A program made the position numbers and the translations under genes. Below are positions 35,030 through 39,934 of a stretch of DNA of 64,000 nt, piece by piece; position 1 is the first letter of the stretch; every line of letters starts with the position of its first letter. Origin of the DNA: Tannerellaceae bacterium (GTDB lineage: Bacteria; Bacteroidota; Bacteroidia; Bacteroidales; CAMTPD01); NCBI GenBank assembly GCA_051656605.1, contig JBOGCF010000007.1, positions 16,556-80,555 of the forward strand, in the 5' to 3' direction. Below the pieces are notes generated by a model. The model saw only the letters and a list, made by a program, of their open reading frames with translations, was not told the DNA's origin and made no database searches.

Positions 35030-36691
35030 TTAATTTCGCAATAACAGATCGCGAGCGTTCGCTAAAGCCGAATCTGTAAGAGCTGAGCCACTCAACATAC
35101 GAGCTAATTCCTCGACCCGTTCGTCAAAACTTAGGCGACGAATACTCGTAACGGTAGCGTCTTCACGATCTTCTTTGTACACAAAATAATGTTCTGCTCC
35201 TTTAGATGCCACCTGTGGAAGGTGAGTAATGGTAAACACTTGCATATTATATCCCAGTTCTTTCATAATATCACCCATTTTGTCGGCAACTTCACCAGAA
35301 ACTCCTGTGTCAATTTCATCAAACACAATCGTAGGCAAAGCCATTATTCCTGAGATTAAGGCTTTAATACATAGCATTAATCGGGAAATTTCACCCCCGG
35401 AAGCCGTTTGTTCTACAGGTTGCAGCGGTGCATTCTTATTCGCTGAGAATAAGAATCTAATTTGATCGAGACCATCACCTTCAGGATTTTCACGCGTTGA
35501 GAACTCTACGTTGAAGCGTGCATTCGGCATTCCTAAAATTGAAACTTTCTCAACAAGATCATTTTCAAAAGTAATTGCAGCTTCTTGTCGCAGTCTAGAG
35601 AGTTGCTGCCCTGTTTGCACAACCTGCTGATAAGCCTTTTCTTTCTTTTCTTCTACCTCTACAATTGCATCTTCATAAGAATTAATCGTTTGAAGTTGTT
35701 TTTCAAACTGATCACGAAGTTCGATCAACTGATCTGTTGATGAAACACGATGCTTTTGTTGCAAACTATTGAGTAGATTTAAGCGATCATCGACCCATTC
35801 GAGACGTTCCGGATTAAACTCAACTTCCTCTATTTGCGATTCGATCTCCGACATCAGATCTTTCAGATCAATATATGAACTTTCGAGACGACTTTCAACC
35901 TCTTCCGCTTTTGCAAAATACTTTCCAGACTGATGAGCATACCCTTTTGCAGTCTTTAGCATCGACACAATACCAGACTCATCGTTATCGAGTAATTGCA
36001 AAATTTTATATAGTGAAGCCTTTATCTCCTCAGCATGTGTCAGTTTCTCTTGTTCAGCCTCTAGCTCCTCTTGCTCACCATCAATCAAGTTTGCTTCACT
36101 TAATTGAGTGTATTGAAAATTAATATAGTCTTCTTCTTGTTTTGATTTCTCTGCTTCGTCGACAAGACGTTTGTGTTCTTTATCGAGTTTATTATACGCT
36201 TTATACTCTTGCTTGTACTTCTGCAATAAAAAGTCTGACTTTGCCACTACATCAATAACATTAAGCTGAAAATGAGTATTCCCCAGCAACAAGTTTTGAT
36301 GTTGGGAGTGAATATCGATCAACATAGTGCCTAAATCTTTCAATTGAGTTAATGACACTGGTGTATCATTGATAAACGAACGAGACTTTCCATTAGTCAT
36401 TACCTCTCGACGAATAAGACAATATTCTTTATCGTACTCAAGATCGTTATCGGTAAAGAAATCTTCGAGATGATACGACGATAGATCAAAAACGGCTTCG
36501 ATCGTGCATTTAGCAGCTCCGTGCTTGATACTTTTGACATCAGCACGCTGCCCTAATACCAAGGATAAAGCTCCAAGTATGATGGATTTACCAGCTCCGG
36601 TTTCACCTGTAATGACCGAAAGGCCATTGGTAAACTCTATTTCGAGCTGATCGATTAGCGCATAATTCTGTATATACAGAGACTTTAGCAT
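35030..36691 (-). CDS. recN: DNA repair protein RecN
   Basis: ITGETGAGKS Walker A, ASGGEISR, FDEIDTGVSG, ITHLPQVA. Confidence 0.96.
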   Translation of the reverse strand: MLKSLYIQNYALIDQLEIEFTNGLSVITGETGAGKSIILGALSLVLGQRADVKSIKHGAAKCTIEAVFDLSSYHLEDFFTDNDLEYDKEYCLIRREVMTNGKSRSFINDTPVSLTQLKDLGTMLIDIHSQHQNLLLGNTHFQLNVIDVVAKSDFLLQKYKQEYKAYNKLDKEHKRLVDEAEKSKQEEDYINFQYTQLSEANLIDGEQEELEAEQEKLTHAEEIKASLYKILQLLDNDESGIVSMLKTAKGYAHQSGKYFAKAEEVESRLESSYIDLKDLMSEIESQIEEVEFNPERLEWVDDRLNLLNSLQQKHRVSSTDQLIELRDQFEKQLQTINSYEDAIVEVEEKKEKAYQQVVQTGQQLSRLRQEAAITFENDLVEKVSILGMPNARFNVEFSTRENPEGDGLDQIRFLFSANKNAPLQPVEQTASGGEISRLMLCIKALISGIMALPTIVFDEIDTGVSGEVADKMGDIMKELGYNMQVFTITHLPQVASKGAEHYFVYKEDREDATVTSIRRLSFDERVEELARMLSGSALTDSALANARDLLLRN

Positions 36692-36694
36692 AGG

Positions 36695-37905
36695 TTACTT
36701 TTTTGCGTATAAACGTGTTTGAAGAAAATCAATGATATCTCCTGCAACTTTTTGTTTCGATTTCAATGGATACTCTTTGGCCTCTCCGCAATCTGAGATA
36801 ATGGTCACTTTATTTGTATCACACTGAAAACCTGCACCTTCTTGTTGTAGAGAATTAAGCACGATAAAATCAAGATTCTTTCGCTGCAATTTTGCTTGAG
36901 CATTTTGCAGCTCATTATTTGTTTCAAGTGCAAAACCAACTAATACCTGATCTGGGCGTTTTAGCTTTCCGAGTTCAGCTGCAATATCTTTATTGGGAAC
37001 TAAATGAAGTGTCATTTCGCCAGTCTGCTCGCGCTTAATCTTTTGCGCAGCTTCTGTCTCAGGTCTGTAATCGGCAACAGCAGCACAAAGAATGGCAGCG
37101 TCTGCATCTGGAAACTGCTCTACGCTTGCCTGATACATTTGCTCTGCACTTTCTACATTGATGCGTTTGATGGATGGATGTACTGTTTTGAGAGAAACCG
37201 GACCTGCTATTAATACGACTTCAGCTCCTCGCTCGGCACAAGCCTCGGCAAGCGCAAAACCCATCTTTCCGGAAGAGTAATTACCAATGAAGCGTACAGG
37301 ATCTATCTTTTCATAAGTTGGCCCCGCCGTTATGATTACTTTTTTTTTTTAAGAGCTTCCTCTTGAACAAAAAATGCTTCAAGTTTTGCGACAATAGTAT
37401 CAGGCTCTTCCATACGTCCTTTTCCTTGCAAATGGCTTGCTAATTCACCAAATCCAGGTTCGATAATATGGTTTCCATAGCTTTCTAAAATATCAAGATT
37501 ACGTTTTGTAGAAGGATGAGCAAACATATCAAGGTCCATTGCCGGAGCAATAAACACAGGGGCTTTACATGACATGTAACAAGTAATTAGCATATTATCA
37601 GCAATTCCATTAGCCATCTTTCCTAAAGTAGAAGCAGTAGCCGGTGCCACGACCATTGCATCAGCCCATAAACCCAAGTCGACATGGCTATGCCATGAAC
37701 CATCTGTATGCGCAAAGAACTCACTTAATACAGGGCGTCCGCTCAAGGCCGACAATGTAACTGGTGTAATGAATTCTTTACCAGACGGAGTAATTACAAC
37801 CTGTACCTCTGCTCCTTTTTTCACGAATGCTCTTACCAAATAAGCCGCTTTATATGCAGCAATACTTCCTGTTACGCCTAATATGATTTTCTTTCCTTTC
37901 AACAT
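36695..37905 (-). CDS. coaBC: Bifunctional phosphopantothenoylcysteine decarboxylase/ligase, split by a frameshift at the A11 tract 37340-37350
   Basis: CoaC part GVTGSIAAYKA...APAMDLDM...GRMEEP ends LKKKK*; the -1 frame continues KVIITAGPTYEKIDPVRFIGNYSSGKMGFALA...AAVADY...VGFALET; joined product about 403 aa. Confidence 0.9.
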
Positions 37906-38026: not shown

Positions 38027-38794
38027 TTACTTATTGAATTCTCTTAGTTTGATTTTTGTCAACATTTGCTTGGTATTAAGAGGGAAATCACCCTGCATCA
38101 TCCACGCATAGTATCCTGGCTCTTGTTTTAGAATATCACAAACGAGTTTACCTCTAAACTTTCCGAAATTAAAAACTTCTTCTCCTTTATCATTATAGAT
38201 CATACGACCAGCAAAGTCTACATTGTTTGTAAAACAAGAAAACTCAGACAAAAAGTTTATATCATTTTGCAATTCCGGATAACGATCCAATTGTGATTTA
38301 AGAATTTCGTAAGTTGCACGAGTATCTGCTTCTGCAGAGTGTGCGTCCTCTAACGTTCTATCACAATAAAATTTATAAGCCGCAGATAGTGTACGTTGCT
38401 CCAATTTATGAAAAATTGTTTGAACATCGACAAATTTACGTTTGCTCAAGTCAATATCTACACCTGCACGTAAAAACTCTTCTGCAAGCAACGGAATATC
38501 AAAACGGTTAGAGTTGTAACCTGCAAGATCACAACCTTCAATTTGAGTAGCCAAGGATTTTGCCAATGTTTTGAATGTCGGGCACTCTGCTACATCTTCA
38601 TCTGTAATTCCGTGTACTGCCGTTGCTTCTGCTGGAATAGGCATTTCTGGGTTTACGCGTCTTGTTTTAATCTCCTCATCACCGTTTGGATATACTTTTA
38701 GGTATGAGATCTCAACAATTCTATCTTTAGAGATATTAATCCCGGTTGTCTCCAAGTCGAAGAAGACGATTGGGTTCTTAAGGTTTAATTGCAT
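38027..38794 (-). CDS. dnaQ: DEDDh 3'-5' exonuclease (DNA polymerase III epsilon-like)
   Basis: FFDLETTG, GYNSNRFD, AHSAEAD; lies directly downstream of dnaN. Confidence 0.85.
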   Translation of the reverse strand: MQLNLKNPIVFFDLETTGINISKDRIVEISYLKVYPNGDEEIKTRRVNPEMPIPAEATAVHGITDEDVAECPTFKTLAKSLATQIEGCDLAGYNSNRFDIPLLAEEFLRAGVDIDLSKRKFVDVQTIFHKLEQRTLSAAYKFYCDRTLEDAHSAEADTRATYEILKSQLDRYPELQNDINFLSEFSCFTNNVDFAGRMIYNDKGEEVFNFGKFRGKLVCDILKQEPGYYAWMMQGDFPLNTKQMLTKIKLREFNK

Positions 38795-38809: not shown

Positions 38810-39934
38810 TTAGTCATTCAACATCATTGGCATCAATAGCATTACAAGTTCTTCATCTGCCTCATTAACCATAGGCACGATAAGACCTGCACGTGATGGA
38901 TCAGCCAATTCTAATACAACCTCAGTAGCATTGATATTATTCAAAATCTCAATCAAATAAGAAGCCTTGAAACCAATACTTAGACTTACATCTCCATATT
39001 GACAGCTAATACGCTCTTCAGCTGCGGTAGAAAAGTCAACGTCTTGTGCTGAGATAATGATTTGATCTGTCACTACCTGAAACTTTACAAGGTTGCTCGA
39101 CTGACTAGAGAATACAGATACACGCTTCAATGCATTAAGCAACATGATTCTGTCTACAATTACTTTATGCGGATTTTCTTTTGGAATTACCGAGTTATAG
39201 TTTGGGTAACGTCCTTCGATAAGACGACAAGTCATCTCAAAGTTAGGCACTTTGAACAACGCATTTTTATCATCAAAACGAACTTCAACTACAGAAGATT
39301 CCTTAGCTAAGATACCTTTCAATAAATTGGCAGGTTTCTTTGGAAGAATAAAAGCCGCACGCTGTCCCGATTGCAAAGCCATATTTCTATACTTAACCAA
39401 CTTGTGACCATCTGAAGCTACGAATGTAAGATCATCTGGAGTAAGATCGAAATACACACCATTCATTACAGGACGAAGTTCATCATCGGCTGTTGCAAAG
39501 AATGTACGATTGATACCACTCAACAACATTTGGGCATCAATATTGAAAGATGCTGCATCTTCACTGAGCGTTTTATATTCCGGATAAGTATCGCCACGCT
39601 GACCGATAAAGTTGTATTTACCATTTTGAAAATAAATAAACACCTCCAAGTTTGAGTCGTCGATCGTAAATATCAGCGGTTGATCTGCTAATTCTTTTAA
39701 AGGATCTAGAAGTATCTTAGCAGAAACGGCAAAAACACCACTTCCCTCTACATTGTTTACTTCCAAAGATGTCACCATTCTTGTTTCCGCATCTGAAGCT
39801 GTAATTGAAAGCGTATTTCCTTGCAGATCGAACAGGAAGCTATCCAAGATAGGCAACGAGTTTTTTGATGCAATTACCTTGCTGATTTGTTGTAAATGCG
39901 ACAACAAAGTCATACTTGATACCTCAAATTTCAT
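38810..39934 (-). CDS. dnaN: DNA polymerase III beta sliding clamp
   Basis: LPILDSFLF, RPVMNGVY, VASDGHKL, LIEGRYPNY, LLMPM. Confidence 0.96.
   Translation of the reverse strand: MKFEVSSMTLLSHLQQISKVIASKNSLPILDSFLFDLQGNTLSITASDAETRMVTSLEVNNVEGSGVFAVSAKILLDPLKELADQPLIFTIDDSNLEVFIYFQNGKYNFIGQRGDTYPEYKTLSEDAASFNIDAQMLLSGINRTFFATADDELRPVMNGVYFDLTPDDLTFVASDGHKLVKYRNMALQSGQRAAFILPKKPANLLKGILAKESSVVEVRFDDKNALFKVPNFEMTCRLIEGRYPNYNSVIPKENPHKVIVDRIMLLNALKRVSVFSSQSSNLVKFQVVTDQIIISAQDVDFSTAAEERISCQYGDVSLSIGFKASYLIEILNNINATEVVLELADPSRAGLIVPMVNEADEELVMLLMPMMLND

Follow-up and report, generated by a model that had tools for sequence, protein, structure and literature searches.

The coaBC locus and its conservation within the genus

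The window, the whole stretch of 64,000 nucleotides of DNA that was analysed, carries on its minus strand a coaBC gene whose two domains lie in different reading frames that meet at a run of eleven adenines. The features of the locus are as follows.

37336..37905, minus strand: zero-frame ORF of coaBC, the CoaC domain, 189 aa, with the end ...EEALKKKK and then TAA (from the ORF list)
37340..37350, minus strand: A11 homopolymer (T11 on the plus strand), the site of the required frame change (from the sequence)
37339..37345, minus strand: A_AAA_AAG heptamer in zero-frame phase, the last seven bases of A11 plus G (phase read from the sequence)
37336..37338, minus strand: zero-frame stop TAA, directly 3' of the heptamer (from the sequence)
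36695..37345, minus strand: -1 frame with the whole CoaB domain, 216 codons plus stop (from the translation)
37262..37264, minus strand: first ATG of the CoaB frame (ORF 36695-37264)

At the junction the minus strand reads ...GAA GCT CTT, then A11 (37350 down to 37340), G (37339) and TAA. Sequence, ORFs and Pfam matches place the split exactly where an earlier note on this DNA had put it, at A11 between CoaC and CoaB, with CoaB in the -1 frame. The zero-frame ORF is CoaC, the phosphopantothenoylcysteine decarboxylase, a flavoprotein (PF02441, E 6e-35, residues 5-176), and the -1 frame is CoaB, the phosphopantothenate-cysteine ligase (PF04127, E 8.6e-75, profile positions 4-186 of 186). The CoaB frame is open from 37345 to 36695 and closed by a TAA immediately upstream of the A11 run; its translation starts KKVIITAGPTYEKIDPVRFIGNYSSGKMG..., and solved CoaB structures (5int, 1u7u, 6tgv) align with it from query residue 1-3. 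At the window locus, no ATG, GTG or TTG is present in this frame ahead of the TAGPT motif. The first ATG, at 37264, is 25 codons past the run and is therefore located after the TAGPT...SSGK motif, which bears out a further claim of the note; a CoaB started there would lack 25 conserved residues, VIITAGPTYEKIDPVRFIGNYSSGK.

A single uninterrupted frame for CoaC and CoaB is absent at the window locus: the zero frame ends at 37336-37338, CoaB is read in -1, and a fused product requires a slip. Each of the two domains is single-copy in the window's genome, G000. The same-strand neighbours are genes that we take to encode a RecN-like ATPase (35030-36691, minus), a DnaQ-like 3'-5' exonuclease (38027-38794, minus) and a DnaN-like sliding clamp (38810-39934, minus). 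The ATG of the downstream ORF 35030-36691 (minus) is found 4 nt after the coaBC stop.

The split arrangement is common to the genus. Aligned for a poly-A tract followed by a zero-frame stop, the three other species, with nucleotide identities to the window of 97% (G002), 93% (G003) and 85% (G001), all have the -1 offset and the TAA, so that both are kept in all four species. The junction reads CT-A10-GGG in G002, CT-A12-G in G003 and CTT-A11-G in G001, and then continues in each relative with TAATCATAACGG. Because the total length is always 13 nt and changes occur by substitution only, the four species require the same -1 correction. The A_AAA_AAG heptamer is not conserved as such, since G002 has A10 followed by GGG. 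Within the genus dN/dS is 0.01-0.08 for CoaC and 0.03-0.06 for CoaB, with dS up to 1.0-1.2. Between G000 and G001, the 27 codons from GTA, which extend from the run to just past the first ATG, include 12 that differ, and all 12 are synonymous in the -1 frame. Given the purifying selection, the synonymous differences and the single copy, the CoaB frame, including the part before its first ATG, must be translated and needed.

The window genome G000 is a draft of 58 contigs, 94% complete, with 40.6% GC and 3.83 Mb, and long homopolymers are depleted in it: 10 A/T runs of at least 10 are seen against 28.9 expected, and a single run of at least 11, the coaBC run, against 8.6 expected from base composition. 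As the sole run of this length where 8.6 are expected, the coaBC run is not a chance product of an A-rich genome. Among the G000 runs of at least 10, it is also the only one that sits between two long same-strand frames. As many as 65 A8-A10 runs in G000 stay in frame within long ORFs, and the assembly thus has no general homopolymer problem.

Independent assemblies agree on the length of the run. Logan contigs from the DNA runs X2, X8 and X11, which come from three studies, cross A11 with substitutions and 0 gaps; the X2 and X11 contigs cover the whole stretch and the X8 contig covers 36600-37502. A separate metagenome contig, L224, the only one recovered in a metagenome pattern scan, has CTT-A11-G, the identical frame and the zero-frame TAA. 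These assemblies thus read A11 without an indel, not the A12 or A9 of an intact gene, and the relatives share the offset. In a large protein collection from public assemblies, the 189-aa split form of CoaC is represented by 9 distinct sequences on 62 contigs, and a fused 403-aa CoaBC with 98% identity, which reads ...EESLKKKKVIITAGPT..., by 3 contigs. The fused proteins P0002, P0003 and P0004 belong to the same genus-level group and come from one contig each. Since these 3 contigs encode an in-frame form, the length of the coaBC run does vary, in DNA or in assemblies; no indel variant was seen in the contigs of the four runs X2, X8, X11 and X7 or among the four species of the genus. The earlier note had proposed that recoding yields a full CoaBC of about 403 aa and might set a decarboxylase:ligase ratio, and the rare fused forms have exactly this length; the argument for recoding itself is a comparative one.

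A contig of the RNA library X7 (depth 13) crosses the run with 0 gaps and reads A11, not A12, and slipped transcripts are thus not the majority in this library, although it may also contain DNA and contigs lose minority variants. The X7 contigs end at 37298-37306, a position that does not match the break expected of a run-length bubble.

Distribution of split and fused coaBC in Bacteroidales

We searched 401 Bacteroidales genomes with the intact CoaBC of genome G020 and obtained matches in 376. Junctions were fetched for every genome with two half-length matches, and 100 loci were classed, 53 as intact and 47 as split; because this set is enriched for split genes, frequencies are to be taken from the 376. 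Left out before counting were the duplicates L001, L032, L059 and L061, the loci in which CoaB is cut by contig ends (L085, L086, L087, L102), and L109 and L110, which represent a second, fragmented CoaB copy in G102.

A -1 switch within an A9-A13 run is present in 28 of the 376 genomes, spread over 18 families, with runs of A9 (n=2), A10 (n=14), A11 (n=7), A12 (n=2) and A13 (n=3). Wherever in the run the -1 correction takes place, it gives back exactly the linker spacing seen in intact relatives (e.g., at L006) and the sequence of the fused forms. All 28 genomes are drafts of 20-620 contigs, and the -1 state is found in none of the survey's single-contig genomes. In a CoaB tree with 99 rows, six exclusive clades of 2-4 species and 12 singletons, the latter known from assemblies, account for the 28. 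At least 18 state changes are needed on this tree; shuffles average 24.5, and 18 or fewer are reached in 3 of 1000. One of the families, f40, includes four species with 61-79% protein identity, all -1, whose runs of A13, A13, A10 and A10 differ by three bases, with the frame kept.

Most of these loci offer no conventional way to start CoaB on its own: ATG, GTG and TTG are all missing from the CoaB frame before the motif at 24 of the 28. Split loci without a long run number 16, and 12 of them have a canonical start about 10-18 codons upstream of the motif; these 12 are true two-gene splits. True-split loci are found in families f139 (L080, L083, L105), f22 (L079, L104), f129 (L071, L073) and f79 (L069, L072) and in the single-contig genome G118 (L063). 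Because several families have separate coaC and coaB genes with their own starts, the CoaBC fusion has been undone repeatedly in Bacteroidales.

Three A-run loci have a +1 offset. Two of these, both in family f94 (L076 in G096 and L097 in G328), have a CoaB-frame ATG directly before an A9 run, overlapping the end of coaC, and are likewise true two-gene splits, with the start codon embedded in the old linker run; only L106 (A10) is +1 without a start. An argument that both offset directions occur and hence the polymerase is responsible was dropped, since the f94 pair makes up two of the three +1 loci. A separate observation concerns family f29, in which two species of one genus (L021 in G031 and L078 in G171) have a common +1 offset that is bridgeable only in a T7A6 stretch; their linker is long, has an in-frame A9 or A6 run and is without a canonical start. 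This T7A6 stretch may be a second, different slip site in coaBC.

Intact Bacteroidales genes often hold the run in frame, with A9-A12 in 20 of the 53 intact loci. Linker runs of at least 10 are present at 17 of these 53 loci but at none of 25 class-level loci outside the order, all of which are intact with runs of at most 9. Two splits outside the order (G551, G533) are ordinary two-gene arrangements. AAA makes up 87-89% of the linker lysine codons in intact genes, compared with 55-69% of those elsewhere in the gene, in a set of relatives that are not independent. Of 80 named close relatives, most of them Bacteroidaceae, 79 have an intact gene, and no cultured strain in the -1 state was identified among them.

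Routes to CoaB from an out-of-frame gene

The only coaBC gene does carry the -1 offset, which is inherited, and we posit that CoaB is made via a slip on A11, in which RNA polymerase most likely adds one A; on the evidence of the sequences, we hold this reading with moderate confidence. The polymerase would stutter on the run to produce an A12 mRNA that reads ...ALKKKKVIITAGPT..., and the product translated from it would have the junction stretch ...EEALKKKKVIITAGPTYE.... Unslipped expression would end at the TAA and give free CoaC (189 aa), and the CoaB domain would be made only within the 403-aa CoaBC, after the frame has been corrected on A11. A ribosomal -1 slip or slide on A11 may add to the correction. 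A linker run of A10 or longer appears to make the DNA frame there nearly interchangeable, so that Bacteroidales lineages have switched many times between in frame and -1. Published measurements bear on such a route from both sides. In E. coli reporters of chlD, frameshifting is 10% on A7, 40% on A9 and 63% on A11 (PMC3711429, in part), and in Blochmannia, where transcriptional slippage corrects conserved poly-A frameshifts, about 30% of transcripts are full-length (PMC3017870, in part). It counts against our proposal that, for the RNA polymerase of E. coli, poly(T) is a more slippery template than poly(A) (PMC6260861, in part).

A possible but less probable reading of the same frameshifted gene is that the correction is mainly ribosomal, through a -1 tandem slip on A_AAA_AAG or A_AAA_AAA by the stop or through sliding on AAA codons for poly-lysine; ribosome sliding on runs of AAA codons was reportedly described by Koutmou et al. 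2015. The earlier note had pointed to a dnaX-type A_AAA_AAG site, and this heptamer is indeed present in zero-frame phase, directly before the TAA in G000, G001, G003 and L224. All 28 out-of-frame loci need -1, and L106 alone needs +1 at an A10 without a start, a pattern in favor of the ribosome. Poly-A sites can, moreover, serve both mechanisms (PMC3711429, in part). The analogy with dnaX is nevertheless weakened at several points. The feature common to the 28 loci is the long run, not the heptamer, a nearby stop or the 3' context, which varies and in which the next base is G, T or C; G002 itself has A10-GGG in place of heptamer and stop. The 90 nt after the site fold with -15.5 kcal/mol (z +0.97), a stability that 172 of 200 shuffles match, and thus form no unusually stable structure, and the fold upstream of the run (z +1.24) is no more stable than shuffles. 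G000 encodes tRNA-Lys(CUU) in two genes and tRNA-Lys(UUU) in six, and the former would remove the basis on which AAG is shifty in E. coli. (Five of the tRNA-Lys(UUU) genes lie in tandem on contig C36, at 155275-155789 and outside the window, and the sixth elsewhere; both tRNA-Lys(CUU) genes are together on C53.) Bacteroidia ribosomes do not use Shine-Dalgarno pairing (PMC10798248 and PMC13000457, each in part), which makes an upstream stimulator of the dnaX type unlikely. Because the loci share only the run, G002 lacks the heptamer, no fold stands out, tRNA-Lys(CUU) is present and the ribosomes are blind to Shine-Dalgarno elements, polymerase slippage is favored over a dnaX-type site; the comparative data, for their part, fail to separate polymerase from ribosome, because every run of at least 9 contains A_AAA_AAA in phase.

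Readings that dispense with a slip fare less well. CoaB could be a separate gene, started at a non-canonical codon such as the ATC or ATA that follow the run in its frame, with the A run as an adenine-rich leader. Upstream adenines do guide start selection in Bacteroidia (PMC13000457, in part), and the true splits in f139, f22, f129, f79, G118 and f94 indicate that the CoaC and CoaB domains can work as separate proteins. We consider this arrangement improbable for the A-run loci: the canonical start that most run-free splits place 10-18 codons before the motif has no counterpart at 24 of the 28, some A-run loci (e.g., L011) are without any ATN or NTG codon between run and motif, and a -1 shift gives exactly the linker spacing of intact relatives together with the sequence of the fused form. 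Phase variation in DNA, with run length changing in replication and function provided by an A12 subpopulation or by pantetheine-supplying neighbours without recoding, would account for the 3 contigs of close relatives that encode the in-frame 403-aa protein and for the 18 or more state changes on the CoaB tree, and long A runs are hypermutable (PMC3711429, in part). It is nonetheless unlikely, in that all DNA assemblies examined for the genus (from 4 genomes, 3 runs and 1 metagenome contig), and 62 of 65 contigs, have the out-of-frame state as their consensus, contigs of four runs show no indel variant, clades keep their state, be it in-frame or -1, and a gene switched off in most cells is at odds with a single copy under strong purifying selection. 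A sequencing or assembly error in a gene that is truly in frame, which the earlier note regarded as the main alternative, has in its favor that long homopolymers are error-prone and that the state is known from drafts and from no single-contig genome; it is contradicted by the gap-free independent contigs, by L224, by conservation in the genus with run differences that are substitutions only, by the 62 split against 3 fused contigs and by the 65 in-frame runs of G000, and we regard it as highly improbable. Gut bacteria may have access to pantetheine, and a decaying pseudogene in an organism that salvages it is conceivable on that ground; both halves are intact, however, with dN/dS of at most 0.08 at dS near 1, and the offset persists across species without a second lesion, so that decay, too, has very little probability. 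Since selection on the CoaB frame shows that it is translated and needed, the pseudogene and error readings both fail.

Beyond slippage as such, we raise tentatively, as a conjecture that is more likely wrong than right, that linker runs of at least A10 have been selected in Bacteroidales as a means of recoding and are more than tolerated lesions, with the in-frame and -1 states as two heritable settings of a CoaC:CoaBC mix. Because the polymerase would slip on the run in either state, every allele would yield both free CoaC and CoaBC, and the mix could tune the number of ligase arms on the CoaC core and hence the flux into coenzyme A. Hints in this direction come from the coaBC run being the longest homopolymer in a genome depleted of them, from the AAA bias of the linker and from the confinement of runs of at least 10 to the order.

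Significance and comparison with known systems

The gene coaBC is essential and serves as a drug target. In these organisms annotation pipelines will label it a pseudogene or two genes, and 28 of the 376 matched Bacteroidales genomes (about 7%) would then seem to lack CoA synthesis in metabolic reconstructions. If its recoding is confirmed, coaBC would join the few genes for core metabolic enzymes that are recoded at a homopolymer in free-living bacteria with unreduced genomes, and would be among the first recoding cases besides prfB in Bacteroidia, where translation departs from the E. coli model. The in-frame and -1 alleles from A9 to A13 form a natural series for measuring slippage by Bacteroidales RNA polymerase and the role of free CoaC. 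Judged from titles and abstracts, coaBC recoding is not described in the literature searched (coaBC frameshift, slippage in Bacteroid-, Bacteroidales programmed frameshift). The terms coaBC, dfp and pantothen are absent from the main text of PMC3711429 and from the first 300,000 characters of PMC5009743.

The arrangement superficially resembles that of separate coaB and coaC genes, which, like the window, have two ORFs, one per domain. True splits, however, have an N-terminal extension and start CoaB from an ATG, GTG or TTG of its own, whereas the CoaB frame of the window has none and begins inside the run. E. coli dnaX has an upstream Shine-Dalgarno-like element and a downstream hairpin, in a species without tRNA-Lys(CUU). 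Its heptamer, A_AAA_AAG, has the same phase as in G000 coaBC; unlike dnaX, coaBC is without a stable downstream fold, is translated by ribosomes blind to Shine-Dalgarno elements in the presence of tRNA-Lys(CUU), and does not keep the heptamer in G002.

A closer parallel is offered by the poly-A frameshifted genes of the insect endosymbionts Blochmannia and Buchnera, which were reportedly the subject of Tamas et al. 2008 and Wernegreen et al. 2010. They are housekeeping genes in which, as in coaBC, an essential gene has a one-base indel in a stretch of roughly 10 or more A's, the state is conserved between species, the downstream frame is undecayed, and a mixed pool of mRNAs presumably rescues the function. 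Their genomes are tiny, extremely AT-rich and hold more than 100 long runs in genes, whereas the coaBC host has 3.8 Mb, 40.6% GC and in coaBC its single longest run. Unlike the endosymbiont sites, moreover, that of coaBC is exactly in a domain linker, so that the unslipped product is predicted to be a complete functional domain, and the state recurs in 18 families.

Two-ORF genes with known slippage complete the comparison. The dnaX genes of Thermus thermophilus (A9) and Chlorobi (two ORFs, A10) resemble coaBC in having a homopolymer of 9-10 A's and a short and a long product, and in Chlorobi the long form needs the slip, as we propose for coaBC (PMC3711429, in part); the dnaX products are known subunits of defined stoichiometry, whereas coaBC is a different gene whose two products are putative. 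In chlD-type Mg-chelatase, as in coaBC, a -1 offset on an A run (A7-A11) joins two domains of a metabolic enzyme, and efficiency there rises with run length, as shown by reporters (PMC3711429, in part), whereas coaBC belongs to another family and other taxa and is known from sequence alone. By analogy, then, the coaBC case is one that would work like the endosymbiont poly-A frameshifts and the two-ORF dnaX and chlD genes. What differs is the gene, coaBC; its host, a free-living gut bacterium whose genome is of normal size and avoids long homopolymers; the position of the site in a linker; and a state that has arisen or reverted many times across an order.
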